The notes under the pieces are model-generated. The model did not search any database. It worked only from the letters and a program-made list of their open reading frames with translations, and was not told the DNA's origin. From an archaeon (GTDB lineage: Archaea; Nanobdellota; Nanobdellia; Pacearchaeales; GW2011-AR1): a stretch of 19,294 nucleotides of DNA. The position numbers and the translations under genes were made by a program. Shown here piece by piece: positions 2,022 to 19,082 of the stretch (its first letter is position 1; each line of letters begins with the position of its first letter). Where the stretch lies: positions 1 to 19,294 of the forward strand of contig JBDRNU010000001.1 in NCBI GenBank assembly GCA_043810775.1, given 5' to 3'.

Positions 2022-2042
2022 CATGTTTGGATGTTAAATGAT

Positions 2043-2666
2043 ATGTTGAAGTGGTTATTTGGTGGTAAAAAAGAGGTTGAAGAGATTAAGAATGATGTTA
2101 AAAAGAGTTTTCATACTATTAAAAATGATATGGACACTGTTTCTAACTGGATTAAACACTTAAACAGCAGCGATGAAAAGCTTGACTTTAAGATTTCTGA
2201 TATAAATGAACGTTTATCGTCGATAGAAGATGAGTTTCAAGGCATGAAAAACGCGCTTGCATTTTTAGAAGGTGGATTTTCTAAACGGCTGTTTAAACAG
2301 CGACAAACAGCTGTGCGTAAACAAACAGCTGTTGAAGGTGTTCAAATACCTATACAAACAGCTGTTCAAACAGGTGATAGTGTTGATTTGTCAGTGCTGT
2401 CAGTTATGGAAAGAGCACTAGTTTTCATACTTTTGAATACTGATATGAAATTGAGTTATGATGATCTGGCTGCAATGCTTGGAAAATCAAGAGCCACAAT
2501 AAGAGGGCAGATAAATACAATAAAACAGAAAAGTGAGGGATTGATTGAAGAGATTATGGAGTCAAATGGTAAAAAAAGACTTTATGTGCCAGAGGAAGTA
2601 AAGGAAAAATTGCTAAAAAAGGTAAAAGTGAGTGGTGGAAAGAATAATAGGAAGAGGGGTAAGTGA
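2043..2666 (+). CDS. Coiled-coil + QTAV-repeat linker + C-terminal winged-helix protein (wHTH-A)
   Basis: ORF track start is 2031, but the TATA spacing favours 2043. HTH: LSYDDLAAMLGKSRATIRGQINTIKQK followed by a beta-wing (NGKKRLYV). Confidence 0.85.
   Translation: MLKWLFGGKKEVEEIKNDVKKSFHTIKNDMDTVSNWIKHLNSSDEKLDFKISDINERLSSIEDEFQGMKNALAFLEGGFSKRLFKQRQTAVRKQTAVEGVQIPIQTAVQTGDSVDLSVLSVMERALVFILLNTDMKLSYDDLAAMLGKSRATIRGQINTIKQKSEGLIEEIMESNGKKRLYVPEEVKEKLLKKVKVSGGKNNRKRGK
2282..2374. repeat. Intragenic AAACAGCTGT repeat array
   Basis: GCTGTTTAAACAGC palindrome 2288-2301; ACAAACAGCTGT at 2303, 2321 and 2354. Confidence 0.85.
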
Positions 2667-3111: not shown

Positions 3112-3121
3112 ATAATGGCTT

Positions 3122-3865
3122 TTAAAGCTCTCTAAGCTGCAAAATAGTGGATAAAGAGACTATTTTCTTAAGATCTGGTGAAATATGGAGAATTATACGC
3201 TTATTATTAAGTTTTTCCTTAATTATAGGTATACCTTTACGTTGAATTTTACCTATGTAGTCCCTAATTGAGCTTTCTGAGAGGCTTAAATGCTTAGAAA
3301 GTAGTGTGTAATCTACCTCTATAATCTGCTCGTCAAGCTGATAAAGTAAGGAAAATGTGGCCATTTCCTGGGGTGTTAGCCTCTTGATTTTTAGACGTAT
3401 TTCCTTCTTAAGCCCATCTAAAGATGAGAGAATTTCTGCAGCTTTATCTAGATGATCACGAGATTTTACTTGTATTTTAGGCTCTTCTAGGGGAGAGATA
3501 TTAGTGGAGGGTTGGGGGGTAAATTGGGGTGAAATTTGAGGTATTTCACTGTATTTGTCTGTCTGTTGGTTTGTCTGTCTGTCTGTTGGAACCCCTTCAT
3601 TTCCTGTGGAAATACCCTTATTTTGGCTTTCTAAGGCTTCTAATGACTGTTGATGTGTTGGAATATGTGTTGGAGTTGTTGGAATTGGGGAACTATGTGT
3701 TGGAGTTTTAATCTTAGCTACAAGCTCGCTAAGTATATCTGCAAGAAGGTGATTTTCTGAATTTAACTTAGAAATCTCTTGTTTAATTTCAGTTATTTCT
3801 GAGCCTAAATTAAAGATGTCTTCTTTAATTTTTTTGAAAGCCTCTTTTAGTTTATCTTCATCCAT
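3122..3865 (-). CDS. Coiled-coil + PTH/TDRQ-repeat linker + C-terminal winged-helix protein (wHTH-B)
   Basis: 247 aa; HTH VDYTLLSKHLSLSESSIRDYIGKIQRKG with wing NNKRIILHI; same architecture as wHTH-A. Confidence 0.88.
   Translation of the reverse strand: MDEDKLKEAFKKIKEDIFNLGSEITEIKQEISKLNSENHLLADILSELVAKIKTPTHSSPIPTTPTHIPTHQQSLEALESQNKGISTGNEGVPTDRQTNQQTDKYSEIPQISPQFTPQPSTNISPLEEPKIQVKSRDHLDKAAEILSSLDGLKKEIRLKIKRLTPQEMATFSLLYQLDEQIIEVDYTLLSKHLSLSESSIRDYIGKIQRKGIPIIKEKLNNKRIILHISPDLKKIVSLSTILQLREL
3554..3707. repeat. Intragenic TGTTGG(A) repeat array
   Basis: (TGTC)nTGTTGG x2 (3554-3590); ATGTGTTGGA at 3653, 3665, 3695; TATGTGTTGGAGTT identical at 3664 and 3694. Confidence 0.8.
3591..3612 (-). 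promoter_or_regulatory. Putative ORB (Orc1/Cdc6 origin recognition box) inside the wHTH-B CDS
   Basis: Minus strand reads TTTCCACAGGAAATGAAGGGGT: TTCC-N3-GGAA dyad plus G-string, the archaeal ORB layout. Confidence 0.6.
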
Positions 3866-3896: not shown

Positions 3897-4163
3897 TTAG
3901 TGTAATTGCTTATATGCATCATAAGCTTTATTTGAGAGTTTCCAGCGAATTCTCCTAGAATAAAATACTCCTTTTGGATTTTTCTTGACTGATACTACTA
4001 GACCTTTATCTTTGAGATCAAGAAGAAGGGCCTTAATAAATTCCTCATCACGAGCTATTTCTCGAGCTATTTCAGCTGTAAATTTAAGATTAGGAAACTC
4101 ATGATATAGATAAGATAAAACCTGCTCTGATATTTTATCGCGTTTCTCATTTGATAGCCTCAT
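3897..4163 (-). CDS. Small winged-helix DNA-binding protein
   Basis: FTAEIAREIARDEEFIKALLLDLKDKGLV followed by a wing hairpin; TATA at 4185-4192. Confidence 0.8.
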   Translation of the reverse strand: MRLSNEKRDKISEQVLSYLYHEFPNLKFTAEIAREIARDEEFIKALLLDLKDKGLVVSVKKNPKGVFYSRRIRWKLSNKAYDAYKQLH

Positions 4164-4285: not shown

Positions 4286-6910
4286 ATGATCAGAAATTGG
4301 AGGACAATTTCAGACATGGCGATTAAATTAAAGCAAGCTAAACTGAGAACTAGGGAAGATCTAATTAGAGTTATGCATCCTCTAGTCAGGGAGTGGTTTT
4401 TCTCTAAATTTAAGGAATTTTCACAACCACAATTATATGGGGTAATGCCAATTCATGATAGAAGGAATATCTTGATTTCTGCACCAACTGGTGGAACTAA
4501 AACTCTGACTGCTTTCTTAAGTATAATTAATTATCTAGTAGAGTTTGCATTTAAAAATGAACTTGCAGATAAGGTTTATGCTGTATATGTTAGTCCTTTG
4601 AAAGCTTTGAGCAATGATATTTTTGTCAATTTGGAAAATCCTCTTAAAGAAATTCAGGAACTTGCAAAAGAAAAAGGAGTAATTATGCAAAAAATAAGGG
4701 TTGATTTGAGAACAGGAGACACAAGCACATCAAAAAGGTCAGCAATGCTGAAAAATCCCCCACACATACTAGTAACTACTCCTGAAACTCTAGCTATCGT
4801 GCTTAATTCTATAAAGTTTGTTGAAAAATTACAAGGAGTTGAGTTTATTATAGTAGATGAGATTCATGCCATGGCTAATAAGAGAGGGGTTCACCTAAGC
4901 CTTAGCCTGGAAAGACTATCTGAATTAAGCAAGATATATCCAGTGAGGATAGGATTGAGCGCTACAGTGGCCCCTTTGGAGGAAATTGCTAATTTCCTAG
5001 TGGGGAATGATGCAGAATGCGAGATAGCTGATATAAGATTTGATAAAAAACTAGATATAGAAGTTATTTCACCTGTGAAAGATCTGATAGAAACTGATGC
5101 ACTTGAGATGCGATCTGGATTATATGGAATGCTAGATAAGCTAATTGAAGAACATAAGACTACACTAATATTTACTAATACTAGGAGCGCTACTGAAAGA
5201 GTAATTCATAATTTGAAAGAAATGTATCCTAAAAAATATATTGAAAATATAGGCGCACACCACTCTTCACTAAGCAAAAAACATAGATTTGATATTGAAA
5301 ATAGACTTAGAAATGGCGAATTAAAAGTAGTAGTTACAAGTACATCGCTAGAATTGGGAATTGATATAGGATATATTGATTTAGTAATCTTATTATCTAG
5401 CCCAAAATCAACTGCAAGAGCTTTGCAAAGAATAGGGAGAGCAGGGCATAAACTTCATGAAACTGTGAAAGGAAGATTTATTGTTCTTGACAGAGATGAT
5501 TTGATTGAATCATCTATAATTTTAAAAGAGGCTATTGAGGGAAAAATAGATGAGGTTCAAATACCTAAAAACTGCTTAGATGTTTTATCACAACAGATTT
5601 ATGGGATGGCTATTTATAAGGTTTGGGACAGAGAAGAAATGTTTAGGCTAATTAAAAAAAGTTATAGTTATAAAGGATTGAATAAAGAAGATTTCCTATC
5701 AGTTATAAGCTACCTTGCTGGTGAATATGCACTAGAACATAGACATGTTTATGGTAAAATCTGGTATGATGAAGAAAGCGGAAAGATTGGGAAGAGGGGT
5801 AAACTTGCTAGGGTGATTTATATGACTAATATAGGAACTATACCTGAAGAATCATATATTAATGTTGAGATTGGGGTGGGGGAGAGGAGGGGCTCTAATG
5901 TAGGAAAAATAGATGAGGGTTTTCTTGAGAGGCTGAAGAGAGGGGATGTATTTGTTTTGGGGGGGGCAAAATACGAGTTTTTGTTTTCAAGAGGAATGAA
6001 GGCTTATGTAAATGCTTCAGTTCAAAGACCTCCGACTATACCCAGTTGGTTTTCTGAAATGCTTCCACTTAGTTTTGATGTGGGGATAGAGATTGGGAGA
6101 TTTAGAAGATTGGTTGAAGAGAAATTTAATAAAAAATTAGAAAAAGAAGAAATTTTAAGCTTTATTCAAGAATATGCATACTGCAAAGCAGGAGTTGCTA
6201 AAGATATTTATAATTATTTTTATCAACAGTATAAATATCTGGGAATACCTTCAGATAAGAAAATAATTATTGAAAATTACAAAGGTGAGAAAAATTACTA
6301 TATTTTCCATACCATGTATGGGAGAAGAGTTAATGATGCTTTCTCCAGAGCTATTGGATTTTTGGTTGGGAGGCTTGGGGGGAGAGATGTAGAAATAGGA
6401 ATAAGGGATAATGGCTTTTATCTTGCTGGTGAAAAGCTACAGGTTGAGAGAGCTATGAAACATTTGAATAGCAAGAATTTAATTGAGATTTTGAAGGAGG
6501 CTATTGACAGGACTGAGGTATTAAATAGGAGGTTTAGACACTGTGCTGGAAGAAGCCTGATGATTTTAAGAAACTATAAAGGAAGAACTAAAAGTGTAGG
6601 AAGGCAGCAGGTATCTAGTTATTTATTATTAAATGCTGTGAATAAAATAAGCCATGAATTTCCTATACTAAAAGAAGCAAGAAGAGAGGTTTTTGAAGAT
6701 TTGATGGATATTGAAAACTGTAAAAAGGTTTTAGACTGGATTTCTGAAGGAAAAACAAAAATAGAATACAAAACTACTAGCCTGCCTTCCCCTTTTAGCT
6801 TAAATATTGTAATGGAAGGCTATTCTGATTTAATTAGAATGGAAGATAGAATTGAATTTCTGAAAAGGATGCATAAAGCTATAAATGAAAAGATAGATAA
6901 GAAGAAGTAA
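4286..6910 (+). CDS. lhr: Lhr-core (Lhr-like) SF2 ATP-dependent helicase
   Basis: Motifs APTGGTKT, SPLKALSND, TTPETL, DEIH, GLSAT, HHSSL, SLELGIDIG, QRIGRAGH, NIGTIP; about 870 aa; alternative start ATG 4316 after GGAGG. Confidence 0.93.
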   Translation: MIRNWRTISDMAIKLKQAKLRTREDLIRVMHPLVREWFFSKFKEFSQPQLYGVMPIHDRRNILISAPTGGTKTLTAFLSIINYLVEFAFKNELADKVYAVYVSPLKALSNDIFVNLENPLKEIQELAKEKGVIMQKIRVDLRTGDTSTSKRSAMLKNPPHILVTTPETLAIVLNSIKFVEKLQGVEFIIVDEIHAMANKRGVHLSLSLERLSELSKIYPVRIGLSATVAPLEEIANFLVGNDAECEIADIRFDKKLDIEVISPVKDLIETDALEMRSGLYGMLDKLIEEHKTTLIFTNTRSATERVIHNLKEMYPKKYIENIGAHHSSLSKKHRFDIENRLRNGELKVVVTSTSLELGIDIGYIDLVILLSSPKSTARALQRIGRAGHKLHETVKGRFIVLDRDDLIESSIILKEAIEGKIDEVQIPKNCLDVLSQQIYGMAIYKVWDREEMFRLIKKSYSYKGLNKEDFLSVISYLAGEYALEHRHVYGKIWYDEESGKIGKRGKLARVIYMTNIGTIPEESYINVEIGVGERRGSNVGKIDEGFLERLKRGDVFVLGGAKYEFLFSRGMKAYVNASVQRPPTIPSWFSEMLPLSFDVGIEIGRFRRLVEEKFNKKLEKEEILSFIQEYAYCKAGVAKDIYNYFYQQYKYLGIPSDKKIIIENYKGEKNYYIFHTMYGRRVNDAFSRAIGFLVGRLGGRDVEIGIRDNGFYLAGEKLQVERAMKHLNSKNLIEILKEAIDRTEVLNRRFRHCAGRSLMILRNYKGRTKSVGRQQVSSYLLLNAVNKISHEFPILKEARREVFEDLMDIENCKKVLDWISEGKTKIEYKTTSLPSPFSLNIVMEGYSDLIRMEDRIEFLKRMHKAINEKIDKKK

Positions 6911-6941
6911 GATTTAAATTATATGTTTTGTTGATGAAAGA

Positions 6942-7694
6942 ATGTTTGCATATGAAGAATTAAAAAAAAGATTGCCTGAATCAGAAGAGGTAATGAATGG
7001 GGAAGAGGCATTGAATTATTTTAGAGATAAAAGTAAGCCAAGAAAAGAGGCAAGATGGTATACTCTAGTTGTAAACGATATTTATTTTAGTACTTCTTTT
7101 TCAAAAGGAGCAGTTTTAGATGTGGGGTGTGGGAGTGCTGGGCTGCTTAAGGAGTTTCAGAGCTCAAATCCTGAGCTTGAATTGGTAGGGATTGATGGGT
7201 CTAAAACATTAATAGATAATGCGCACAAGTTTATAGCATCTAAGAAAATTAAGTTATTTTATTCAGATGCAGGGAAATTAAAGTTTAAAGATAGCAGTTT
7301 TGATTTGGTTGTTTGCCAAGATACGTTTCATCATTTTAGGAATCCTGTAAAGGTTCTAAAGGAAATGTATAGGGTGGTGAAAAAAGGAGGATTCATCTAC
7401 ATGACAGACTTGCGTAGAGATGTGGAGAAAGGGTTTATAGAGCAGGCAATAAGAAATATTTCAAAAAAAAGCATTGACCATACAAGGTTTTATCTTGCTT
7501 CTCTTAAGGCAGCTTATACTGTTTCTGAAATGAAACAAATAATAAAAAAATCTGGGATAAAGAAGTGTAAGGTTGCAAATGGAAAAAACGAGAGGCACAC
7601 AATGAAGATTATAAAGACAATTTTAAATCCAGAGACAAGAATTGACAAAGAAAGATTGTTTAAAGAAAGGTGGGTTGCAATAATAAAGAAGTAA
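6942..7694 (+). CDS. Class I SAM-dependent methyltransferase
   Basis: VLDVGCGSA, GID, FKDSSFDLV, FHHF..P.KVLKEMYRVVKKGG. Confidence 0.88.
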   Translation: MFAYEELKKRLPESEEVMNGEEALNYFRDKSKPRKEARWYTLVVNDIYFSTSFSKGAVLDVGCGSAGLLKEFQSSNPELELVGIDGSKTLIDNAHKFIASKKIKLFYSDAGKLKFKDSSFDLVVCQDTFHHFRNPVKVLKEMYRVVKKGGFIYMTDLRRDVEKGFIEQAIRNISKKSIDHTRFYLASLKAAYTVSEMKQIIKKSGIKKCKVANGKNERHTMKIIKTILNPETRIDKERLFKERWVAIIKK

Positions 7695-7697
7695 GAT

Positions 7698-8051
7698 TTA
7701 TCTTTTCTTTTTCTTAACTTTTTTAGAAGGGGCCTTCTGGATTGGCTGTTTATTTTTTTTAAATTGGTTTGTTTTTCTTCTAACTATTATATATAAAATA
7801 ATAATTACAACTAGGAGAACTAAAAATCCCAAAGTATAACCTATTGCTTCACCCCCTATAGCATTTCCTGTAATACTTTTTTTCCCAAACATTATTTCAT
7901 ATAAATCTTTGAAAAAAGACTTTACTTTTATTGTTATAGGAGCATTATTATCAGTTATAGTTTGATTAGTATCAACTTGAGTTGAAGCTGTTATAAAGAA
8001 TATAACCACTAGTGCAAAAGATGCTATAAGTGGAATTGTATACCTCTTCAT
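7698..8051 (-). CDS. Hypothetical membrane/surface protein
   Basis: N-terminal hydrophobic segment, ITGNAI motif, C-terminal TM and basic tail. Confidence 0.75.
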   Translation of the reverse strand: MKRYTIPLIASFALVVIFFITASTQVDTNQTITDNNAPITIKVKSFFKDLYEIMFGKKSITGNAIGGEAIGYTLGFLVLLVVIIILYIIVRRKTNQFKKNKQPIQKAPSKKVKKKKR

Positions 8052-8072
8052 AAAAAACTCAAGATAAACATA

Positions 8073-8078
8073 TTTAAA
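8073..8078. promoter_or_regulatory. Possible bidirectional TATA box
   Basis: TTTAAA lies 22 nt from ATG 8051 (-) and 26 nt from ATG 8104 (+). Confidence 0.45.
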
Positions 8079-8103
8079 ATGTTTTTGGTTGAAGAATTAT
8101 AAG

Positions 8104-8841
8104 ATGAGATATGAATTTATAGGGAAAGCCCTGCTTATTAATGATAGAATTTTGGCTATTGCAGATATACATTTAGGATATGAGGAAAATTTGACAGAGA
8201 AAGGGGTATTATTACCTAGGGGAGAGCATCTTAAAGAAACTATAAAGGATTTGGGGGAAATATTCTCAGGATTGAAAAAGCGAGGAATAAAGCTAGATAA
8301 AATAGTGATTGTTGGTGACTTGAAACACCAATTTGGCAAGATATCTGGGCAGGAGTGGAGTGAGACTCTTGAATTAATTAGTTTTCTTGAAAAAAATTGC
8401 AAAAAGGTTATCTTAGTTAAGGGAAATCATGATAATATATTGGGGCCTATTGCCTATAAAAAGAAATTGAAGATAGAGGATTTTTATGTTGAAGAAGAGG
8501 TTGCTTTTTTGCATGGTCATAAAGAGTATAAAGAAATTGAAGATAAAAAAATAAAACTAGTGGTTTGCGGGCATTTTCACCCTGCAATTATGATTTCTGA
8601 TAAGTATAAGAAAGAAACATACAAGTGTTTTTTAGAAGGGGGTTGGATTGGGAAAAAAGTAGTAATATTGCCAAGCTTTATTCACTTTGTTATGGGTAAG
8701 GAAATGTTATTTATGGATTTAGTGAGGGGATTTAGTTCTGAATTTAGCTTGAAGCTGAAGCTTGAGAATTTTAATGTTCAGATAATAGGAGATAAAGTTT
8801 ATGATTTTGGAAAGTTAAAAGATTTAAGAAGGCTTATTTAG
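8104..8841 (+). CDS. Lhr-associated calcineurin-like metallophosphoesterase
   Basis: ADIHLG, GDLKH, GNHD, HGH, GHFHP, LPSF motifs; the track's 8089 start is TTG, ATG 8104 preferred. Confidence 0.9.
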   Translation: MRYEFIGKALLINDRILAIADIHLGYEENLTEKGVLLPRGEHLKETIKDLGEIFSGLKKRGIKLDKIVIVGDLKHQFGKISGQEWSETLELISFLEKNCKKVILVKGNHDNILGPIAYKKKLKIEDFYVEEEVAFLHGHKEYKEIEDKKIKLVVCGHFHPAIMISDKYKKETYKCFLEGGWIGKKVVILPSFIHFVMGKEMLFMDLVRGFSSEFSLKLKLENFNVQIIGDKVYDFGKLKDLRRLI

Positions 8842-9287
8842 ATATAGGGAAATCTTTGCCTAACACTTAAAACAGGCCTGCTCATCGACTCTAAACCCCC
8901 TATAGGGTGCCTTTGGAAAAGTTCTCCACTTTCTGGAGTAGAGTGTAAAGTGATTGGTTCTAGGTCTTTGTCAGAGAAATCCCTCTTTGTATAATCTGGA
9001 GATCGAGGATTAAATAATACTCCGGAAAAATTTTCAAATTGACTTTTTCTTGGCATTTTAGGAATAACTGGAGGTCTCCCCATACTAGCTATTGAAGAAA
9101 CTAACTGATTATAATATCTTGGGGAGATTGGCTGTCTTTTATCTTCATTTAAAGAATAAACTTGAAATCCATGCAAGAGTTGAGGGGGCTCGACAGGCTC
9201 GTCTTCTGGGTCATAGTTAGGATCATCTAAATTTGGAAGGTCATTTAAGAATTCAAAAGAATCTGAATTAAAACCAGATCTTGCCAT
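8838..9287 (-). CDS. Hypothetical, Pro/acid-rich protein
   Basis: 149 aa ORF; TATA TTTATAAA at 9309-9316. Confidence 0.65.
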   Translation of the reverse strand: MARSGFNSDSFEFLNDLPNLDDPNYDPEDEPVEPPQLLHGFQVYSLNEDKRQPISPRYYNQLVSSIASMGRPPVIPKMPRKSQFENFSGVLFNPRSPDYTKRDFSDKDLEPITLHSTPESGELFQRHPIGGLESMSRPVLSVRQRFPYI

Positions 9288-9392
9288 TTTAAATTTACAA
9301 ACTTATAGTTTATAAATTTTACGGGAGAATATTTTTAAATATATATTTTAGAGTAAAGATAAGTAATTAAATAAAAATGCATTAAATTGAAG

Positions 9393-9875
9393 ATGAATAA
9401 AAGAATAGGGATAATATCATTAGTGATTATAGCTTGTTTAGTAGTTGTTTCTGCGCAGTGTGATAAAGGGTATGATGGAGGATATGATTATGGCTGGAAG
9501 GAGGGGTATGATGATGGTTATGCCCCAGGATATGATGATGGAAGATATGATTATGAATATAGACATAACTTTGAGTATGATAAAGAATATAAGAGATATT
9601 ACGACGACTGTTATTGGAATGGGTATAATTTAGGATATAACAGGGCTTATAAAAAGGGTTATGAAGGAGGGTATGATGATGGAAGAGAGGTGCGCAGGTA
9701 CAAAAGCACTAAGAGGTCTTACTCTAGTGGCTGTGATGATAGATATTATAATTGTGAACGAGACAGCAAGAGGAGATATTACAAAGAAGATAGGTATGAG
9801 CAAGATTATGGTTCTGAAAAATATAATGAAGGTTTTAGTTTCTTATCAAGAATCTTGAAAGATGTTTTTCATTAA
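9393..9875 (+). CDS. Secreted Tyr/Gly/Asp-rich GYxxG-repeat protein
   Basis: Signal peptide ending VVSA-Q, then two runs of GYxx repeats. Confidence 0.75.
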   Translation: MNKRIGIISLVIIACLVVVSAQCDKGYDGGYDYGWKEGYDDGYAPGYDDGRYDYEYRHNFEYDKEYKRYYDDCYWNGYNLGYNRAYKKGYEGGYDDGREVRRYKSTKRSYSSGCDDRYYNCERDSKRRYYKEDRYEQDYGSEKYNEGFSFLSRILKDVFH

Positions 9876-10207
9876 ATTTTAGATAAGGCGTAAACTACTG
9901 CTTCTATGTACTCTTGGGGAGTCATTTTCATAGTGTAATTTTTCTGAGAGCATGTCCTGGAAGAAGAAAACAAAAGATTTTGAGGGGAACCTACTGAAAC
10001 TTTCTGTGAGCTCATAAAATTAAGAAAATTCTTTCTTCTTCTGTAAAAAGTCTTATAATCAATCGGCTTTTTTTGTTCAAGCTTGTCCAGAATTTTATCT
10101 ACAAGAATTCCATCATAACCTATTTTTACAGGTAAAGAATGGGTCACAATGTAGCCTGAAATAACTTCTGTGTATTGAAATAATTCTCTCTGACTATATT
10201 CTGCCAT
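9872..10207 (-). CDS. Hypothetical protein
   Basis: Track ORF 9872..10252; ATG 10207 directly follows the aminopeptidase stop. Confidence 0.6.
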   Translation of the reverse strand: MAEYSQRELFQYTEVISGYIVTHSLPVKIGYDGILVDKILDKLEQKKPIDYKTFYRRRKNFLNFMSSQKVSVGSPQNLLFSSSRTCSQKNYTMKMTPQEYIEAVVYALSKI

Positions 10208-10208
10208 G

Positions 10209-11285
10209 TTAGATTTTCCACTTTCCGTTTTCTTGAATAATTTTTCCATCAAGAATTATTTTTGCTTTTCTCATGTCTTTGACAATATCAATATGAACTG
10301 CAGAATCATTGCCTCCACCATTTTCCTTGTAAGCAGAACCTAAAGCAAGATGGATGGTTCCGGCAATTTTTTCATCAAACAATAAATTCTTTGTGAATTT
10401 TGTAACTTTTTTATTTAACCCAATTCCAAACTCCCCAATATAAGAAGAATTTTCATCTGTTTCTAAGATTTCCTTAAGCAAGTCTTTGTTTTTTGAAGCG
10501 TCAAACTCAATAACTTTTCCATTTTCAAATTTTAGAGAAACATCATGAATTTCTTTGGCAGCATTTGTTATTGGGTGCTCGAATTTAATCCAACCTTCCA
10601 TTGATTCCCTAATAGGTGCCATAAAAACCTCCCCCATAGGAACATTATCACCATCAATATCAGATTTTGCATCCTTACCATTAATCTTAAACTTCAAGTC
10701 AACATTTTCACCAATTAAATGAACTTTTTTGCCTTTTTTGAATTCATTTAAAACTTTATTCATGAACTTACATATTTTCTTCCAATCCTGCAAGCAAGCA
10801 TTATAAACAAAATTTTCATAGTCTGAAAAAGACATTTCTGCATTTAGAGCTAGTGCAATGCAGGGATATGCAATGGTGCACCTTTTTATTTCAGATTTAT
10901 TATTACAAATATAATCAGATATTGGGGCTGTAATTTTATGCCTTATCATAATTTTTTTAGGATTAGCTAGAGATAACTCGTGAGGATTTGTTTCAGTATT
11001 AATACCAATATACTTATCGGCATACTTAACTAAATCCATTAGATGCTGGGGGAAATGCTCAATCTGCTCCTTACTAGCATATTTATAAAAAAAATCAGCG
11101 ACGTTTGGAAGTCCAATTTTTACTATTGGGTGAGCTTTTCTTAAGATTATTTCTTTATACAGCTCGGTAATGAAAGGAATTGCCTCTGGCTCTCCAGAAA
11201 TAATAACTTGCTCGCCTGGCTTTACATAAACTGCATAATTTACAGCAAGTTTAGCCAGCTTCCTAGTTCTAAGGTCTAGAGGCAT
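10209..11285 (-). CDS. M29 family aminopeptidase (AmpS/AmpT-like)
   Basis: NVPMGEVFMAP, IGEFGIG, LFDEKIAGTIHLALGSAY, NDSAVHID; ATG 11285 preferred to TTG 11294. Confidence 0.92.
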   Translation of the reverse strand: MPLDLRTRKLAKLAVNYAVYVKPGEQVIISGEPEAIPFITELYKEIILRKAHPIVKIGLPNVADFFYKYASKEQIEHFPQHLMDLVKYADKYIGINTETNPHELSLANPKKIMIRHKITAPISDYICNNKSEIKRCTIAYPCIALALNAEMSFSDYENFVYNACLQDWKKICKFMNKVLNEFKKGKKVHLIGENVDLKFKINGKDAKSDIDGDNVPMGEVFMAPIRESMEGWIKFEHPITNAAKEIHDVSLKFENGKVIEFDASKNKDLLKEILETDENSSYIGEFGIGLNKKVTKFTKNLLFDEKIAGTIHLALGSAYKENGGGNDSAVHIDIVKDMRKAKIILDGKIIQENGKWKI

Positions 11286-11286
11286 T

Positions 11287-11547
11287 TTATTCAATAGTTA
11301 ATTCAACTTTTCCAGATTTAATTTTATCAGCTAGAGTATTTTTAAGTTCAGAAATTCTTTCTTCGTAATCTTCACCAGGATTTGGACCCTTGATAATATA
11401 ATATAAAACGTGACTGCAATTTCTTGCACTTTCAAGAACAAATTCAAAACTTGGAGTAATATCAGCCGTATAACCCCTTCCAGTTAACATTCTTGCACGA
11501 CTTCCTGGAACTGGGCTGAATGCATAAATTAGAGCTTTTTTTGCCAT
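11287..11547 (-). CDS. Hypothetical protein
   Basis: 86 aa ORF abutting the aminopeptidase gene. Confidence 0.6.
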   Translation of the reverse strand: MAKKALIYAFSPVPGSRARMLTGRGYTADITPSFEFVLESARNCSHVLYYIIKGPNPGEDYEERISELKNTLADKIKSGKVELTIE

Positions 11548-11748
11548 TTTAATTTCCCAGAATTAGGCATCTGAACGCCACCACCTCTGACTTATAGGGA
11601 AATTACAAGTATAAAAAGTTAACTATTTGCTGTTATGTGGGGTGGCTGAAAGTCGACTGATTAGAGAAATCTTTGATTTCGTATGGAAAGTATGATAAAG
11701 GACACTATTATAATAATATTAATAAATCAAAGAGTGTTTTCTTTAATT

Positions 11749-12153
11749 ATGAGTAAACCTAAATTACATTTTGGACATCCCATCAGCACATATGGTACAA
11801 CCATAGAGCAAAAATTGATTGAAATTATCGAAGAACATTTTCCAGAATACGAATTAGATAATTGTAACCAATCACATCACCAAAAAGCAGCAAAAAAGTT
11901 AAGAGAAGAAACTGGGAATCCAATGGAATATTTTTTTAAGGAATTTATTCCAAAAATGTCAGTTGGAGTCTTTTTGCCATATAGAGATGGGATGTTTGGT
12001 TCAGGAGTTTATGATGAAGCAGTTCAGATGCACCAAGAAAGAAAACCTATTTATCAAATTGATTATAAAGGAGTAATTTTTGAGATGAGACTTAATAATT
12101 CTAAAAGGCTGTCAATTCCTGAAACTAAAGCGAGAAATAAAGTGTCTGAGTAA
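11749..12153 (+). CDS. Hypothetical, nucleoside 2-deoxyribosyltransferase-like fold
   Basis: KLHFGHP at the N-terminus and VFLPY.DG.FGSGVYDE resemble NDT/RCL-type N-glycosidases; track start is 11683. Confidence 0.55.
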   Translation: MSKPKLHFGHPISTYGTTIEQKLIEIIEEHFPEYELDNCNQSHHQKAAKKLREETGNPMEYFFKEFIPKMSVGVFLPYRDGMFGSGVYDEAVQMHQERKPIYQIDYKGVIFEMRLNNSKRLSIPETKARNKVSE

Positions 12154-12222
12154 TATTGCACATAATTGAAATATAGCCTATAAGAACACAATTCTTTTAA
12201 AGGGGTAAACACAGAAAACATT

Positions 12223-13575
12223 ATGAAAGCTTACTTGAAGTGCATTATTCCTTCTTGTGATTTTAGAGAGTCAATTTACAAGGAGATAACTGAATGCCCT
12301 AAATGTGGGAATCTTTTAGATGTAGCTTACGAGGATCAGGATCCTACTTCTTTTAAGGAGCTTTTTGACTGCAGAAAAAGAAATGCAAAGAAAATATTTG
12401 ATAAAAGTGGGGTTTGGAGATATAGGGAGCTTCTTCCTTTTCCATTTGAGCATGAAAATCCAGAAAAAATCCTAGTATCACTAGATGGTAAGGAAGGGCA
12501 GTCAAGTCCTTTTCATTTGACAGAAGTTGCAAAGTATGTAGGAATTAGAAGTGAAGATTTTTATCTTCAGAGTGAGGGGGAAAATCCTACAGGAAGCTTT
12601 AAAGATAATGGCATGGCAGCAGCATTTACTCATGCAAAAATGCTTAATAGGGAGAAAGTAGTTTGTGCTAGCACTGGAAATACTTCTGCATCAATGGCAG
12701 CTTTTGCTGCAAATGAGCTTGGAAATATAAAAGCAATTATTTTTATTGGAAGTGGAAAAATTTCAATGGGCAAGCTGGCACAGAGCCTGGAATATGGTGC
12801 AAAAGTTATACAAATTAAAGGGGATTTTGATGATGCTATGGCTAAAGTAATAGAGGTTGCTGCGAAAGAAAATCTTTATGTTATGAATTCTATAAATCCT
12901 TTTAGATTAGAGGGACAGAAAACTATGATGTATAGATTATTGGAGGGTTTGGATTGGAAAGTTCCTGATTGGGTAGTATGTCCGGGGGGAAATTTAGGAA
13001 ACTCTTCTGCATTTGGAAAGGCATTTTATGAGTTGAAGAGTTTAGGTTTAATAGATAAAATGCCGAGAATCGCAGTAATTAATGCTAAAGGTGCAGATAC
13101 CTTATATAGATTATACAATCAAGAAGGTCTAAGATGGAATAAAGGAAGTGTTGATTTTGAAAAAATTAAAAAATTCTATGAAAATATGGATAAAGAAAAC
13201 AGAAGAGCCAGCACCCTTGCTTCTGCTATTGAGATTAACAGGCCTGTTAATTTGATAAAAACTTTAAGAGCATTAGAATTGACTAATGGGGTTGTTGAAG
13301 AAGTAGAGGATATGGATATGCTAGATGCTAAGGCTATTGTTGGAAGAAATGGGTTTGGGTGTGAGCCTGCAAGTGCTGCTTCAGTTGCTGGAATAAAAAA
13401 ATTAGTTGAAAAAGGCGTAATAAAACAGACTGAGGTTGTTGTAGGTATAATGACGGGGCATCAGCTTAAGGATCCGAAAGTCACTATCGAATATCATACT
13501 GGAAATAATAAATATAGCAATAAACCAATTGAGGTTGAGAATAGTGCAGAAGATATAATAAAAGCTTTAAATTAA
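12223..13575 (+). CDS. thrC: Threonine synthase (PLP-dependent)
   Basis: NPTGSFKD (PLP lysine), CASTGNTSAS, NSINPFRLEGQKT, PGGNLGN, EPASA, TGHQLKD; N-terminal Cys4 ribbon. Confidence 0.93.
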   Translation: MKAYLKCIIPSCDFRESIYKEITECPKCGNLLDVAYEDQDPTSFKELFDCRKRNAKKIFDKSGVWRYRELLPFPFEHENPEKILVSLDGKEGQSSPFHLTEVAKYVGIRSEDFYLQSEGENPTGSFKDNGMAAAFTHAKMLNREKVVCASTGNTSASMAAFAANELGNIKAIIFIGSGKISMGKLAQSLEYGAKVIQIKGDFDDAMAKVIEVAAKENLYVMNSINPFRLEGQKTMMYRLLEGLDWKVPDWVVCPGGNLGNSSAFGKAFYELKSLGLIDKMPRIAVINAKGADTLYRLYNQEGLRWNKGSVDFEKIKKFYENMDKENRRASTLASAIEINRPVNLIKTLRALELTNGVVEEVEDMDMLDAKAIVGRNGFGCEPASAASVAGIKKLVEKGVIKQTEVVVGIMTGHQLKDPKVTIEYHTGNNKYSNKPIEVENSAEDIIKALN

Positions 13576-14438
13576 CTATGCTGAAAATTATCTCCTCTTA
13601 ACTTATCAAGTTCTGCTTTTGCTTGATTAAAACGTTTTTGCGCTTCTTCTACTTGCCTTTGTTTTTTGAGCTGTTCAATTTCAGCTTGAGCTTCTTTGAG
13701 TTTTTTTTCAGCGTCAGCCAGAGTATCTTGAGGTATAAAAACCTCAGATTGTTGCTGAGCTTGCTGTTCTTGCTCTTGTTTTTGTTTTTCTCTGAAATCT
13801 GAGAGTTTAGTAACTTTAATTTTCTCTTTTGATTCTTCTTTAATAGGAGAAGATTTAAACCTACGAACAATCATTAAACCTAGAACTCCTAGAAGAATTG
13901 CAAGAATAATAATATAATAACCAATATTAGTAGTAATATTTTGAAAAAAAGAACTCGCATCATCTACAGTTATTGCTGCTCCAGTTATTCCAGAAGCATC
14001 TTGAGATTCAGCTACTATATCTGCAGTTGCTTCTGATTCGTTTGTAGTATTTTCAGTTATATTTACTGTAACTTCTGTTGAAGTGACAGGGGTAGGGTCT
14101 TGAGCTTCATCATCTAAAATACTTATAAAAATAGGCTCGTTAGTTGAAAATGGGCCAAGTTTTTCGTGAGTTTCTTTAATTATCCCATCTTTTACAACTA
14201 GAATAGTCATATCAATAGAAGCCCTATTTGTTGAAAAATTACCTGTAGCATTACCATTTAGGTTTGCTTTTAAATATAAACTATCTATTACTGCAAAAGT
14301 AGTAGGGTCTAGAAGTCTTAAAACTAGATTTTGCCCCGGCTTTGCCCTTATGTTTACCTTAACATTAGTTTCAGCTAGACTTAAAGGAATAACTAGTAAA
14401 ATAAACATTAAAAATAAAACAGCTCCTCTTTTAATCAT
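13572..14438 (-). CDS. Single-pass surface protein with cytoplasmic coiled coil
   Basis: Signal peptide, beta-rich ectodomain, T/N-rich linker, ITGAAI, TM helix, Q/E/K coiled coil; ATG 14438 fits TATA 14461-14468. Confidence 0.8.
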   Translation of the reverse strand: MIKRGAVLFLMFILLVIPLSLAETNVKVNIRAKPGQNLVLRLLDPTTFAVIDSLYLKANLNGNATGNFSTNRASIDMTILVVKDGIIKETHEKLGPFSTNEPIFISILDDEAQDPTPVTSTEVTVNITENTTNESEATADIVAESQDASGITGAAITVDDASSFFQNITTNIGYYIIILAILLGVLGLMIVRRFKSSPIKEESKEKIKVTKLSDFREKQKQEQEQQAQQQSEVFIPQDTLADAEKKLKEAQAEIEQLKKQRQVEEAQKRFNQAKAELDKLRGDNFQHS

Positions 14439-14471
14439 ATTCAAATTTGAGTTTTTGTAGTTTATAAATTT

Positions 14472-14807
14472 TTATATACTGGCTAGAAGTTCGAGTGCTT
14501 TGGCTGCAGATATACTATCTTCAATAACAAGGAATTTTTCACTTTCTAAAAATTCCTTGAAAGCCAGGGCTTCTACTATTTGTGATGAGTCACAATATCC
14601 GTGACAATCAAAACCATAGCATAATACTATATCTCCTGGAGGAGAATTATTTAGAAAATAAAGCCAGGCGATTTGTTGAGAGTCTGGTTTTATAGGTTTA
14701 ATAGAGTATTTTGGCCCGAGACCTTGACTAAGAGGTGAGGGGGAAGAGACTTCATAACCGGCATGCTGAAGGAAAGGTATAATTTCTTTTGTAATTTCTT
14801 TTGGCAT
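14472..14807 (-). CDS. Hypothetical protein
   Basis: Track ORF 14472..14816; ATG 14807 follows the upstream stop. Confidence 0.6.
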   Translation of the reverse strand: MPKEITKEIIPFLQHAGYEVSSPSPLSQGLGPKYSIKPIKPDSQQIAWLYFLNNSPPGDIVLCYGFDCHGYCDSSQIVEALAFKEFLESEKFLVIEDSISAAKALELLASI

Positions 14808-14808
14808 T

Positions 14809-15228
14809 TTATTCAATTAACCAGGTTTGAATTATTATAAATATTATTGCAATAATACTTAGTATTCCTTTAAGAGCAAGGAATGCGTGATTTTCAAAAC
14901 GAAGATAAGGTATGGAGAAGATTCCCGCAATTATGGCAAGAAAACCAATTATTACAGTAACCATATGGGTAAAATTAGTAGGGGTAAGACCTTCTATTTT
15001 TATTTTCTTGAATCTTGTAATCTGGCCTTCTATGACTAATCCTATACCTACAATAAACATCAGGAGAGCTTCGACATACATTTTCGCGTCAAACTCAAAC
15101 AAAGTTTCAGAAATTATTCCAATAAATCCGAGGATACTTACAATTGCAAGAACAGATACAAATTTATGTGAAGCTGTAACTCTTTTTTTAATAATTTCTC
15201 GCTCAATTGAAACCTCTTTATTTATCAT
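14809..15228 (-). CDS. Four-TM membrane protein
   Basis: 139 aa with four hydrophobic helices; TATA at 15250-15255. Confidence 0.8.
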   Translation of the reverse strand: MINKEVSIEREIIKKRVTASHKFVSVLAIVSILGFIGIISETLFEFDAKMYVEALLMFIVGIGLVIEGQITRFKKIKIEGLTPTNFTHMVTVIIGFLAIIAGIFSIPYLRFENHAFLALKGILSIIAIIFIIIQTWLIE

Positions 15229-15267
15229 AAAATTTAGAATTTAACTTGTTTTAAATATTTTTTGGAA

Positions 15268-16701
15268 TCACCTGATTATAGTTTCTTCATCACTTGGGCC
15301 TACTGAAACTATAACTGCATGGCCACCAGTATAAGCTTCAAAATCTTCAATAGAATTTTTTAAACTAAGAGGAAGATTGCTATATCTCCTAACATCACTT
15401 ATATCCCCATATCCTTCATAAGTTTCATATACAGGTGTGGAATTTCTAAGAAAAGACTCACTTCTTGAAAAAGTATCTGTATGCTCCTTATTATGATTAT
15501 AACCAAAAGAAACTTTGAAACTTTTAGCTCCAGATAGGGAGTCAGGCTTAGTTAAGATAAATAAAGGGCCATTAATAGAAACAGCATATTTAGCTGATAA
15601 GGCATCAGTTGGGCCAGTTCTTCTTGGACGACCAGTTGTGGCTCCGTATTCACCTGCAGCAATTCTAATACCTATTCCTTTGATAAATTCATCTTCAGAA
15701 TTTATCATTTCTATTATTTTAGAATTTTTTCTATCATAAGATAAACCTCTTTCTGTAATTTCGTGAGGAATTCCAAACTGAATAAGTTCGTCTAGTTTAG
15801 TGTGATTATCTCCAGCACAGTAGTTTTCAGACATTGAACCTCCGAATTCCGTTGGGAAAGGACCTGCCCCTACTCGAGTCATAAAAGGAAATTTAATAAT
15901 TCCGAAAGGTAAATCAACTAGTTTGGCTGATAAACCTACTCCATTTGCAGTTCCATTTAAAGAGCAGTCAGAAGAGGTTACATAAGGATAGGTTCCGTGC
16001 TCTATGCTTAGAAGAAGGCCTTGGGCTCCTTCTAAAAGTATTTTTTTACCTTGAGAAACAAAAGTATGCATTTCACTGACTGTGTCTCTTACAAAAGGTT
16101 TAATTCTCTCTGAAAAAGGAGCTAAATAATTTATAATTTCTTCAGAATCAATGGCTTGATCAGGGTATATTTTTTTTGCTTTTTCAATTCTACTTGCGAG
16201 TTTGTCAAGAGAAAATAAATCTTCAATAAAAATTCCTCTTCTTGCGACTTTATCTGTATAGCAAGGACCAATACCTCTTCCTGTTGAGCCTATCCCTCCT
16301 TGTTTTTGAGAGCTGTTCTTTGCTTTATCATAAATTATATGATAGGGCATAATTACACTTGCGTCTTTACTTATCATCAGATTATTATAAGTATTTCCGT
16401 CAGAATCAAGCTCATCAAGCTCGTGAGATAAAACTTCTAAATCGAGAACCATTCCGTTTCCAAGGATAGTAATTTTTCCACTAGAGTCATATGATATTCC
16501 TGCAGGTATTAGATGAAAAATTTTTTCCCTGCCATTAATAACTACTGTATGCCCTGCATTATTGCCACCTGTTCCTCTAGCAATTACATCTGCCCACCTG
16601 GAAGCAAAATAGTCTGAAAATTTTCCTTTTCCACTATCTCCCCACTGATTGCAAATAACTGCTATAATTTGAGCATTTCTTATTAAGTCAACTAATGCCA
16701 T
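15268..16701 (-). CDS. purA: Adenylosuccinate synthetase
   Basis: QWGDSGKGK, GGNNAGHT, IGSTGRGIGPCYTDK, EGAQG, GTYPYVTSS, TRVGAGPFPTE, EYGATTGRPRR. Confidence 0.95.
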   Translation of the reverse strand: MALVDLIRNAQIIAVICNQWGDSGKGKFSDYFASRWADVIARGTGGNNAGHTVVINGREKIFHLIPAGISYDSSGKITILGNGMVLDLEVLSHELDELDSDGNTYNNLMISKDASVIMPYHIIYDKAKNSSQKQGGIGSTGRGIGPCYTDKVARRGIFIEDLFSLDKLASRIEKAKKIYPDQAIDSEEIINYLAPFSERIKPFVRDTVSEMHTFVSQGKKILLEGAQGLLLSIEHGTYPYVTSSDCSLNGTANGVGLSAKLVDLPFGIIKFPFMTRVGAGPFPTEFGGSMSENYCAGDNHTKLDELIQFGIPHEITERGLSYDRKNSKIIEMINSEDEFIKGIGIRIAAGEYGATTGRPRRTGPTDALSAKYAVSINGPLFILTKPDSLSGAKSFKVSFGYNHNKEHTDTFSRSESFLRNSTPVYETYEGYGDISDVRRYSNLPLSLKNSIEDFEAYTGGHAVIVSVGPSDEETIIR

Positions 16702-16702
16702 T

Positions 16703-18187
16703 TTATGGTTTGTAATTTGGAGCGTCTTTAGTTATTCTTATAGTATGAGGGTGTGATTCTGAAACACCTGATGAAGTAAACCTGTCAAATTGACCTTTAT
16801 CACGAAGCTCTTGAATTGAAGCTGCTCCGACATAACCCATCCCTGCTCTTAAACCTCCTATATACTGAATTATAATATTTCCCAGCTTGCCTTTATAAGG
16901 AACTAAACCTTCAACACCTTCTGGAACAAGTTTAGTTTCATCTAGCTGCCTATATCTACTTCTTGAAGCTTTGCTTGACTTAAGTGCGCCTAGTGAACCC
17001 ATCCCCCTATAATCTTTCCACTGACGGCCTTCAAAAAAAACAATTTCTCCAGGAGATTCATCTGTGCCTGCAAGCATACTTCCAAGCATAACAGAGTTTG
17101 CTCCTGCTGCTATTGCAATAACTATATCTCCAGAATTTCTTAAACCTCCATCAGCACATACTGGAATTTCAGAATTAACTGCCCGTGCACAATCATAAAC
17201 AGCTGAAACTTGAGGCCTGCCTACACCAGCTATTATTCTTGTGGTGCAAATAGAACCAGGACCTTGTCCAACTTTTATGCCGTCTGCACCGACGTCTGCT
17301 AATCTTTTTGCAGACTCACCCATAGATACATTTCCTACAACTACTTCTAGTGAGTAATTTCTTTTTATTTCTTTTAAAGTATCAAATACATCTTTTGAAT
17401 CGCCATGAGCTGTATCAATAACAACAACATCTATATTTTTTTCACGCAGCCTTGAAACTCTTTCAAGAGCTTCTGGGCCAGTGCCAATTGCAGCTGCAAC
17501 TCTGAGCTGGCCTTTATTGTCAACATTATATAAATCATAACATCCTGATTTAATTCTCTTAAGGTCACTAAAAATATACATCCCACTTATTTCCCCAGTT
17601 CCAGTTACTAAGGGAAGTATCCTCTTTTTTTCTCTTTTCATTAAAGAATAAGCTTGCTCAAAAGTTGTTCCTGTAGGGGCAGATATAATGTTAGAAGTCA
17701 TAATATCCTTGGCTTTTAAAGATAAATCATCGCAAAACTCAAAATCTCTTCCTGTTATTAACCCTGCAAGCTTTCCTCCACTATTTAACACTGGGAAGCT
17801 ATGAAAATTATAATTTTTTCTCTCTATTTTCAAAAGAATTGAGGAAACTGTTTCATCTTCATTAACACAAATTGGCTTGTCTATTAAACCATTAAGATGA
17901 TATTTAACTTTTGCTACTTGAGAGGCTTGTTCTTCAATAGTTAGACCTCTATGAATTACTCCTAAACCACCGAGTTTTGCAAGCTCGACAGCAAGTCGAT
18001 ATTCTGTTACTGTGTCCATAGCAGCACTTGTAATAGGAATATTAAGACTTATGTTTCTGGAGAATTTTGAAGCTAAATTGACTTTATCAGGCATTATCTC
18101 AGAATGCCCGGTCCTTAAACGAACATCATCAAAAGTTAAAGCCAAGCCTTGCTCAGCTGCTAGCTCAAGGACTTGTTTTGGATTCAT
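16703..18187 (-). CDS. guaB: IMP dehydrogenase with CBS pair
   Basis: [30 protein letters not shown] (catalytic Cys), ADGG, YRGMGS, VPEGVEG. Confidence 0.96.
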
Positions 18188-18363: not shown

Positions 18364-18792
18364 TTATTTAATATACTCCCTATTTTGATCTTTTGGAGGA
18401 CCGAGTTTTGGCATAGGAATATGTGGGGGAAGAGAAAACTCTTCTTCAAGTTGAAGTGCCTTAATATTACACTTAGAGAATATAAAATTAAAAAGAGGTA
18501 TTCTTAATTCATCCCCTATTTTCTTGTTTTTCCATTTCTTGATTATATCTTTGGTTTTTTGATTATCAAATACAACTAAAACATAACCTTCAAAAGAGAT
18601 ATTCGCAATTTTAGGCTCATAACCTATAGCATATTCAAAATCAAACCTTATTATTTCTTTATTATCCAGTGCCTCTATCTTTTCACTTGTAACTTTCTTG
18701 ACATCTATATTTGTTTTTATCTCTATCTTACCTTTAGAAGGGTTAGTTCTCTCACCTGATATTTTTTGGAAATTAAAACCTACTATTTGCAT
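18364..18792 (-). CDS. Conserved archaeal hypothetical protein (possible SecB-like fold)
   Basis: Four beta-strand pattern, then helices and a LPPHIPMP tail; fold call is tentative. Confidence 0.6.
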   Translation of the reverse strand: MQIVGFNFQKISGERTNPSKGKIEIKTNIDVKKVTSEKIEALDNKEIIRFDFEYAIGYEPKIANISFEGYVLVVFDNQKTKDIIKKWKNKKIGDELRIPLFNFIFSKCNIKALQLEEEFSLPPHIPMPKLGPPKDQNREYIK

Positions 18793-18821
18793 TTTAAAAT
18801 AATTATTAATTTAGTATAAAA

Positions 18822-19082
18822 TTAAATCAAATCTTCTTCTGAAACAACTACAAAATCACCTATTGCTATAATTGCATTATAAGGTAATAACAATTCTTTA
18901 TCTTTAGTAATCTCAAGATTAAGGTTTTTAGTATAAGGGGTTTGATTTTTAACAGTAATATGAATAAGTTCACCTGTTCGAGTTTCAAATGTCACATCTT
19001 TTACTAAACCAAGTCTTTTACCTTCTTTTGTTACAACGAGCTTGCCTAAGATATCTTTGAAAGGCTTTTTATCAATTGTCAT
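18822..19082 (-). CDS. PRC-barrel domain protein (CdpB-like)
   Basis: ILGKLVVTKEGKRLGLVKDV.F....GEL and LLPYNAIIAIGDFVVV; TATA at 19104-19111. Confidence 0.88.
   Translation of the reverse strand: MTIDKKPFKDILGKLVVTKEGKRLGLVKDVTFETRTGELIHITVKNQTPYTKNLNLEITKDKELLLPYNAIIAIGDFVVVSEEDLI

Follow-up and report, generated by a model that had tools for sequence, protein, structure and literature searches.

The stretch of DNA considered here, referred to below as the window, is the whole of contig C1 (JBDRNU010000001.1; 19,294 nucleotides (nt)) from an archaeon of the Nanobdellota (Pacearchaeales, GW2011-AR1), whose assembly (GCA_043810775.1) amounts to 995 kb in 26 contigs, with 33% guanine plus cytosine (G+C) and a completeness of 80%. 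Its minus strand carries, at positions 3591..3612, a sequence of 22 nt, TTTCCACAGGAAATGAAGGGGT, which has the form of an origin recognition box (ORB) of the Orc1/Cdc6 initiator and which lies within the codons of a protein gene, named here gene B (P0001; 3122..3865, minus strand, 247 amino acids (aa)). The box takes up codons 85-92 of this host gene, translated as I85-S-T-G-N-E-G-V92, with its dyad end at 3612 and its G-string end at 3591.

The product of gene B consists of an N-terminal coiled-coil helix (aa 3-52), a disordered linker (aa 55-132) and a C-terminal MarR/ArsR-like winged helix-turn-helix (HTH) domain (aa 134-246). The AlphaFold model (mean predicted local distance difference test score, pLDDT, of 76) has the corresponding succession of a 50-residue helix, a disordered stretch and a winged HTH, and the box peptide falls in the stretch modelled as disordered (aa 55-132), where the pLDDT drops below 50 at residues 55-58, 62-92, 95-107, 109-116 and 118-132. 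When the model was searched with Foldseek, the top matches were MarR-family chains (E values of 8.6e-4 to 7e-3, TM scores by target of 0.4-0.6). In Pfam the protein has only a sub-threshold match to HTH_11 (19 bits against a cut-off of 25), a search of NCBIfam gave nothing meaningful, and a sequence-profile search of the PDB returned no family, only matches at E about 0.01. The protein atlas places the gene B family in the Nanobdellota, labelled as hypothetical or HTH-type.

The box is set among simple repeats. Directly 3' of it, in the sense of the gene, lie (ACAG)n and CCAACA low-complexity repeats (3556..3589, minus strand) that encode PTDRQTNQQT and read on the plus strand as TGTC and TGTTGG, and 5' of it lie four CCAACA repeats (3656..3703, minus strand; TGTTGG on the plus strand) that encode the PTH/PTT repeats of the linker. 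In orthologs, too, tandem repeats made of A and C only come after the box, and these are lineage-specific. An earlier note on this DNA had placed the box between two TGTTGG clusters. Locally this is correct, since two copies lie below the box in the numbering (3564 and 3584) and four above it (3656, 3668, 3677 and 3698), a real cluster that accounts for six of the ten copies in the window, whereas the window-wide total, with 6.7 copies expected, is not above chance. The same note had the G-string pointing toward the convergent spacer, and the 3591 end does face the 3' end of the gene and the spacer at 2667-3121. The 240 nt around the box have 41.5% G+C, which is above the genome mean, and contain no AT-rich stretch.

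Match to published archaeal boxes

Ten ORBs are printed in Table 2 of PMC4153887, together with two consensus forms (Methanomassiliicoccales; the pan-archaeal consensus of Pelve et al.). The box is identical to one of these ORBs at 19 of 22 positions (3 mismatches), and a site in a relative whose letters are identical to the printed ORB was likewise scored by the search tool at 3 mismatches from the box. When the genome (995 kb) is compared with the two published 22-nt consensus forms, no other site comes as close as the box, which has 4 mismatches; none follows at 5 mismatches, and five to six sites do so at 6. Positions 3-13 of the box correspond to the consensus in Table 2 of PMC4153887, that is, to the dyad core of a mini-ORB, except at the two central variable positions. 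The G-string (positions 18-22) keeps its spacing from this core and is intact in the box and in 24/24 orthologous sites, among which positions 3-6, 9-13 and 18-22 are all invariant. The proposal of a near-canonical ORB inside the codons for ISTGNEGV is therefore borne out by the reading of the strand, by the frame of the gene and by the match to published ORBs. The particular string from which it had started, given as Aeropyrum ORB4, is printed in no archaeal paper among the matches listed and stands unconfirmed; the main text of PMC8287685 and that of PMC3089459 print no ORB letters.

Chance does not readily produce such a match. None of 200 shuffles of the window gave one at 3 mismatches or fewer, and the pattern hits 25 of 41 genomes at the level of the order and 186 of 301 at the level of the class, compared with 0/41 and 2/301 for the reversed pattern used as a control. 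(The class-level tally of 186 counts one genome flagged as unpublished, G283, on which no other claim depends.) A score matrix was built by coordinates from the sites of relatives; it includes the window's own site and is biased to gene boxes, and in its ranking of the sites of this genome the gene box comes first (40.3 bits), a site at cdc6 second and a site at the right end of the window third. The absence of an inverted partner, remarked on in the earlier note, is also seen with this matrix, the runner-up between 2000 and 4300 scoring 3.4 bits. The closest relatives of the box in the genome are the site at C17:35473-35494 and a weak site on contig C3, at 4 mismatches each. The fourth-ranked site, C3:78109 (17.4 bits), lies inside the open reading frame (ORF) of a 233-aa HTH protein, which by eye we take to be TrmB-like, and was rejected as an ORB, being read as an AT-rich chance match.

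Conservation of the box among orthologs of gene B

Orthologs of gene B were found in 33 of 40 relatives, which are kin and not mutually independent. A pattern search allowing 3 mismatches located the box within gene B in 23 relatives, each time in the sense orientation and with the frame unchanged; the matrix added six relatives with an in-gene box (G002, G017, G019, G027, G015 and G020), giving an in-frame box in 29 of the 33. The other four orthologs are cut by contig ends, carry a stop or were not fetched, so that none of the 33 has been shown to lack the box. Class-wide, 22 of 27 sampled loci have the box within a homolog of gene B, in phase 1 (E values of 9e-6 to 2e-66 by blastp), and in the remaining five it lies outside any such homolog.

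The box is conserved as DNA. The earlier note had asked whether synonymous positions are constrained in orthologs, and this was addressed with 26 orthologs picked by protein match alone, thereby avoiding selection on the DNA pattern; 20 of them, also present in alignment A1, are 25-52% identical to the window protein. Within the box, Ser is encoded by TCC (26/26), the first Gly by GGA (26/26), Asn by AAT (23/26), the second Gly by GGG (26/26) and Val by GTT (25/25), and the Thr codon two past the box is ACA in 24/24. Elsewhere codons vary: among the 28 further columns whose residue is conserved to 85% or more, not one is fixed for a single codon, Ser using six codons and Gly four. The third positions of the box score 1.0, 1.0, 0.92, 1.0 and 1.0 against a mean of 0.62 elsewhere, and the box is the most conserved 22-nt segment of the codon alignment (0.938), the next best being the repeat just downstream of it (0.782), with the winged-helix blocks reaching at most 0.78.

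Amino-acid substitutions coincide exactly with the positions at which ORBs vary (T/I; E/K/R/G/D/Q), and outside this order the 22 nt persist while the residues past V92 differ. In the 176-aa ortholog of G029 the linker consists almost entirely of the box and (ACAG)n. Some genes hold additional copies: G017 and G018 have a second sense-strand copy in another frame, read as PQEI.GL; G036, G033 and G038 have an antisense copy, read as TP.FP, which forms inverted pairs 37-39 nt apart; and G005 has a box pair of the same inverted layout with a 47-nt gap. These extra copies, in another frame and on the antisense strand, settle the point in favour of selection on the DNA over selection on the peptide. 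The S-[TI]-G-N-x-G-V peptide would then be the translation of the box and a motif in appearance only, and the box itself is neither a chance match nor a peptide motif.

Position relative to the origin of replication

The genome has one match to Cdc6_C, at C17:34230-34505 (minus strand), near the right end of contig C17. It belongs to the only cdc6 gene (C17:34185-35387, minus strand), which is the sole Orc1/Cdc6 gene of the genome, and 86 nt upstream of that gene stands an ORB (C17:35473-35494, minus strand), past which the end of the contig is A+T-rich (73% over 109 nt); no other box above 12 bits was found on C17. At the right end of the window lies a degenerate ORB (19215..19236, minus strand; 19.6 bits with the clade-derived matrix), the left-hand box of the replication origin (oriC), followed by the start of the AT-rich unwinding region (19237..19294), of which 58 nt with 91.4% A+T are present before the contig ends.

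These two contig ends are best understood by comparison with 20 relatives that have gene B and cdc6 on one contig. The order is the same in all 20 loci: a paralog of gene B (paralog A), gene B, an 88-aa winged-helix gene, a variable insert, a 142-aa gene, an 86-aa PRC-barrel gene and then oriC, made up of a box on the minus strand, an AT-rich spacer, a box on the plus strand and cdc6. The window carries every element through the left box and C17 carries the right box and cdc6, and since the two hold complementary parts of a conserved order, oriC would span the gap between C1 and C17. No sequence overlap was found between the two ends. (Exact terminal overlaps occur elsewhere in the assembly, namely 107 nt shared by C8-left, C22-left and C22-right and 50 nt shared by C5-right and C20-right, and are probably repeats that broke the assembly.) On this arrangement the gene box would be 15.6 kb from oriC in the present genome. 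In seven compact relatives the distance is 1.3-1.7 kb, against 5.2-14.3 kb in the remaining 13, where genes such as that for the Lhr helicase have been inserted.

The gene box shares its identity with the boxes beside cdc6. An ORB follows the PRC-barrel gene at the same position and on the same strand in 18 of the 20 loci (L052 and L063 have none at the 13-bit cut-off), the cdc6 spacer has at least one box in 20/20 and an inverted pair in 12/20 at 13 bits, and five further families have near-consensus inverted box pairs beside cdc6. The six order-level pattern hits outside the gene are all in the cdc6 spacer, in frames of 44 codons or fewer. In this organism and its clade, AT-rich DNA beside orc1/cdc6 is thus bordered by the motif in inverted orientation. 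Relative G003 has a 511-kb contig on which no more than five sites exceed 12 bits, four of them being the gene box and three cdc6-spacer boxes. The cumulative AT skew of that contig peaks at 300-330 kb, its keto-excess minimum is at 308.8 kb, and both turning points are thus close to the cdc6 locus at 313-316 kb, at a resolution too coarse to separate 1.5 kb; the cumulative GC skew is not V-shaped. With codons frozen at the box, and the same type of box at the cdc6-adjacent origin of the clade, the suggestion of a dual-coded ORB made in the earlier note is well supported.

The gene box itself lacks the features that define an origin. Where an origin would have at least two ORBs flanking an AT-rich unwinding element, it is solitary, in DNA with 41.5% G+C locally, and it does not combine an adjacent initiator gene with a skew switch, cdc6 being on another contig. 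The gene box is taken not to be an origin because it is solitary in coding DNA of normal G+C content.

ORBs also occur at other places in the class. In G164 and G167, which belong to another family, a tbp-mcm operon, identified by the TBP and MCM families of Pfam, is preceded at about 90 nt by a near-consensus ORB (36.6 or 30.2 bits; L130 6733-6754 and L131 6964-6985 respectively), about 4 kb from the cdc6-adjacent origin; the placement of this ORB suggests control of helicase expression by the initiator. The ORFs adjacent to these two ORBs encode TBP, and their candidacy as relatives of gene B was rejected, as hhalign shows no relation. In G225 (L124) there are ORBs at 453-474 and 788-809, the one preceding a gene B homolog by about 100 nt and the other inside it, and the link between box and gene is found there in a promoter-proximal form as well. 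Two to three direct, consensus-grade ORBs, 30-100 nt apart, are present at L126 2873-3072 (G261), L127 3105-3156 (G215) and L128 2697-2804 (G047), in stretches with no recognisable gene B homolog or cdc6, that of L126 being overlapped only by short ORFs. In G279 some 2.6 kb are duplicated in tandem, and each unit begins with an identical 25-bit ORB-like site (L129 2133-2154 and 4746-4767) at the 3' end of a 279-aa ORF.

As regards the neighbouring genes, the small winged-helix gene of 88 aa (3897..4163, minus strand) is directly upstream of gene B with a gap of 31 nt, adjoins it in 20/20 loci and is probably co-transcribed with it. Beyond this pair, the variable insert (4286..18187) holds genes for the Lhr helicase, a methyltransferase, a phosphoesterase, an M29 peptidase, a PALP enzyme, adenylosuccinate synthetase, IMPDH and others; it separates the gene B module from the origin-proximal genes and is absent from the seven compact relatives. 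Its size among relatives ranges from 0 to about 13 kb, and where it is present, the Lhr helicase and a calcineurin-like phosphoesterase are almost always encoded in it. Judged from these comparisons of gene content, the region at 4286-18187 is a spot of gene turnover beside oriC. The two origin-proximal genes (18364..19082, minus strand), one for a 142-aa protein of no family and one for the 86-aa PRC-barrel protein, lie between the gene B module and oriC in relatives.

On the other side of gene B and convergent with it is paralog A (2031..2666, plus strand; 211 aa), which has the same coiled-coil, linker and winged-HTH build, no ORB, and palindromic repeats in its linker. The 10-nt palindrome AACAGCTGTT has three copies in the 995-kb genome, all at paralog A (window positions 1856-1865 and 2303-2366): one is upstream of the gene and two are in linker codons read as QTAV, of which there are three units in total. 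The 8-nt core of AACAGCTGTT is clustered in the paralog A gene of six of the seven compact relatives, and an 11-nt tandem repeat in the promoter region of paralog A (1879-1907, 2.6 copies) carries half of AACAGCTGTT. The palindrome looks like another DNA signal embedded in linker codons and may be the operator of the paralog A protein itself. The convergent spacer at 2667-3121 is purine-rich (67.5%) and 455 nt long, compared with 61-297 nt in the compact relatives, and it contains no ORF and no Rfam hit. The 7-mer AAAGTGA, which the genome has on average 0.1 times per kb and strand, occurs in seven plus-strand copies between 2530 and 3110, spaced by 72-158 nt.

Possible roles of the box and its gene

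We consider it probable that the 22-mer is an Orc1/Cdc6 ORB kept by selection at the level of the DNA, a solitary satellite site of the initiator that is set in linker codons and tied to its gene, and not an origin. The gene box fits the pan-archaeal consensus better than do the organism's own oriC boxes, which suggests that it is probably a high-affinity site, one that the single Orc1/Cdc6 of the cell would occupy readily. Its role would be tied to gene B or be independent of distance, as the box remains part of gene B at distances from oriC of 1.3 kb up to 15.6 kb, and the site may thus serve its host gene. Two options can be envisaged. The bound initiator could throttle transcription through the last gene of a small winged-HTH operon, acting as a roadblock or regulator; alternatively, the initiator could be buffered at the high-affinity box within the gene. 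Either option would couple the level of the initiator to a DNA-binding protein of the origin region.

The nearest parallel comes from the Thermococcales, where the gene for the small subunit of PolD, dp1, contains an intragenic cluster of ORB3 and mini-ORBs (Matsunaga et al. 2007, PMC1904270). In Pyrococcus this cluster was found to bind Cdc6/Orc1 in vivo and in vitro, by chromatin immunoprecipitation and gel shift. The earlier note's view that ORBs are normally intergenic and next to cdc6, which would make a dual-coded box unusual, has to be tempered on both counts, as dp1 is an intragenic precedent and gene B belongs to the conserved neighbourhood of oriC. As with the dp1 cluster, the ORB lies within a protein-coding gene of the origin neighbourhood, in an organisation conserved across the order (29/33 orthologs; 22/27 loci class-wide). 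Unlike that cluster, which sits in dp1 downstream of cdc6, it occupies a different gene, which oriC separates from cdc6 and dp1, it is one box, and it lies anywhere from 1.3 to 15.6 kb from oriC. What the gene box adds is codon freezing and copies in alternative frames; binding was demonstrated for dp1 and is predicted for the box described here.

Compared with the canonical ORBs of orc1/cdc6-adjacent origins (PMC4153887; for ORB1 and ORB2 of Pyrococcus, PMC1904270), the gene box has the dyad core, the spacing and the G-string in common, but it is solitary, intragenic, in DNA of normal G+C content and some 15.6 kb from the presumed oriC. Table 2 of PMC4153887 also contains two boxes, ORB3 and ORB4 of 'Ca. 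Methanomassiliicoccus intestinalis', that are footnoted as not associated with another ORB. These orphans resemble the gene box in being single, consensus-grade ORBs away from the cdc6-adjacent origin; they differ in that they are listed downstream of genes, with no analysis of conservation or function, whereas the gene box is in frame and conserved class-wide.

Further parallels exist among bacteria and their phages. The ori-lambda sequence occupies the linker-coding part of gene O, and a parS site lies within spo0J of Bacillus subtilis. Both are, like the gene box, replication or segregation signals within the gene for a DNA-binding protein near the origin, but they are bound by the product of the gene itself, whereas the presumed binder of the gene box, Orc1/Cdc6, is encoded elsewhere. 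In Escherichia coli, datA and the titration of DnaA boxes provide examples of initiator sites outside the origin that have a role in control. In Saccharolobus, Orc1-2 is described as a transcription regulator (PMC9738581, PMC12490963). With datA and Orc1-2 the comparison is one of working principle, a strong initiator-family site off the unwinding region that tunes availability or expression, and implies no homology of sites. A regulatory role for the gene box would find support by analogy with the dp1 cluster, with Orc1-2 and with the boxes ahead of tbp-mcm.

Several observations weigh against this interpretation or narrow it. The argument for high affinity leans mainly on the intact G-string and dyad as opposed to the degenerate copies at oriC, since the matrix was trained on gene boxes, and at 8 of the 20 loci only one oriC box passes 13 bits. 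The adjacency of C1 and C17 is drawn from synteny, with no overlap between the contigs. This genome's own tbp-mcm operon (C26:52.7-55.8 kb) has no box, so that a general Orc1 regulon is not shown in this organism. Within this order the conserved block extends a few codons past the box (PTDRQT, with ACA in 24/24), and some constraint on the peptide or on the repeat may add to the conservation signal. Finally, the present results do not separate regulation from buffering.

Of the other explanations, the one with the best claim is that the gene box is an accessory part of an extended origin, acting physically with oriC by looping or by nucleating the assembly of Orc1, with no relation to its host gene. 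The seven compact relatives, in which the box is 1.3-1.7 kb from the oriC boxes and has the polarity of the near-side one, would suit such an arrangement, as would the dp1 cluster, which is reported to be bound by Cdc6 as strongly as oriC and for which the same role has been proposed (PMC1904270). Polarity is not independent evidence, because it is fixed by the reading frame. We regard this explanation as unlikely, given that the box is single and not a cluster and has remained unchanged in the gene despite 5-14 kb (15.6 kb here) of unrelated inserted genes.

That the gene contains an additional origin of replication, or one left behind by an integrated element, is very improbable. Such an origin would be comparable with ori-lambda, situated within gene O (PMC6022878), and the iteron-like short repeats that flank the box and the two in-gene boxes of some lineages, inverted (G036, G033, G038; G005) or direct (G017, G018), might be cited in its favour. 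Yet the box is solitary in this genome (G000) and in most others, no partner above 3.4 bits occurs within 2.3 kb in G000, and the surrounding 240 nt, at 41.5% G+C, are free of AT-rich stretches. Gene B is also inherited vertically in fixed synteny, and a search of viral contigs gave 70 pattern matches and not one relative of gene B.

Less probable still is conservation at the level of the mRNA, where a small hairpin with a 5-bp stem and a 3-nt loop would serve in pausing, in stability or in the binding of a protein. The dyad half can pair, and variable positions 7-8 would then be in the loop, but the sense strand folds no better than its shuffles (z of 0.37; 129 of 200 shuffles fold as well), positions 1-2 change without compensating change, and Rfam has no hits in the window. 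A hairpin would also fail to account for the invariance of the G-string, for the copies that occur antisense and between genes on both strands, and for the match to unrelated archaeal ORBs. That the short linear peptide STGNEGV is itself the object of selection, its likeness to an ORB being coincidental, is hardly credible, for although all 26 orthologs keep the S, G, N and G residues and, within this order, PTDRQT extends the block, it is only at the box that synonymous sites are frozen, residue changes track the ORB-variable positions, copies occur in other frames and on the other strand, and the residues after V, in a region modelled as disordered, differ outside the order while the 22 nt stay.

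A broader scheme can be put forward, tentatively and with more doubt than confidence. The convergent genes A and B may provide both the proteins and the DNA platform of an undescribed module of the Nanobdellota for control or segregation of the origin region, in which the initiator would sit on the box while the encoded A and B proteins would dock on the short repeats and on the genome-unique palindromes in both linkers and the spacer. The resulting nucleoprotein complex, similar to those at datA or parS, could set the availability of the initiator or tether the origin region. Were this the case, the odd peptides of the linkers would be mostly translated DNA signals.

The literature offers little with which to compare these proposals for this lineage. 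No description of ORBs in DPANN archaea was found, the term 'origin recognition box' being absent from the DPANN papers among the matches listed; a preprint on complete genomes of Nanobdellota contains no 'ORB'; and searches on replication control returned nothing for this lineage. The box may thus be of interest in several respects. It represents a natural case of overlapping codes, in which a class-wide 'protein motif', STGNEGV, is predicted to be a translated initiator-binding site, and so carries a caution for the motif-based annotation of disordered linkers. In fragmented assemblies, the box together with the synteny helps to locate oriC, linking in this instance the right ends of C1 and C17 across an AT-rich gap. 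For the uncultivated DPANN archaea it offers a concrete candidate for an off-origin target of their single Orc1/Cdc6, with the conserved pair of winged-helix proteins as candidate partners in the control of replication.

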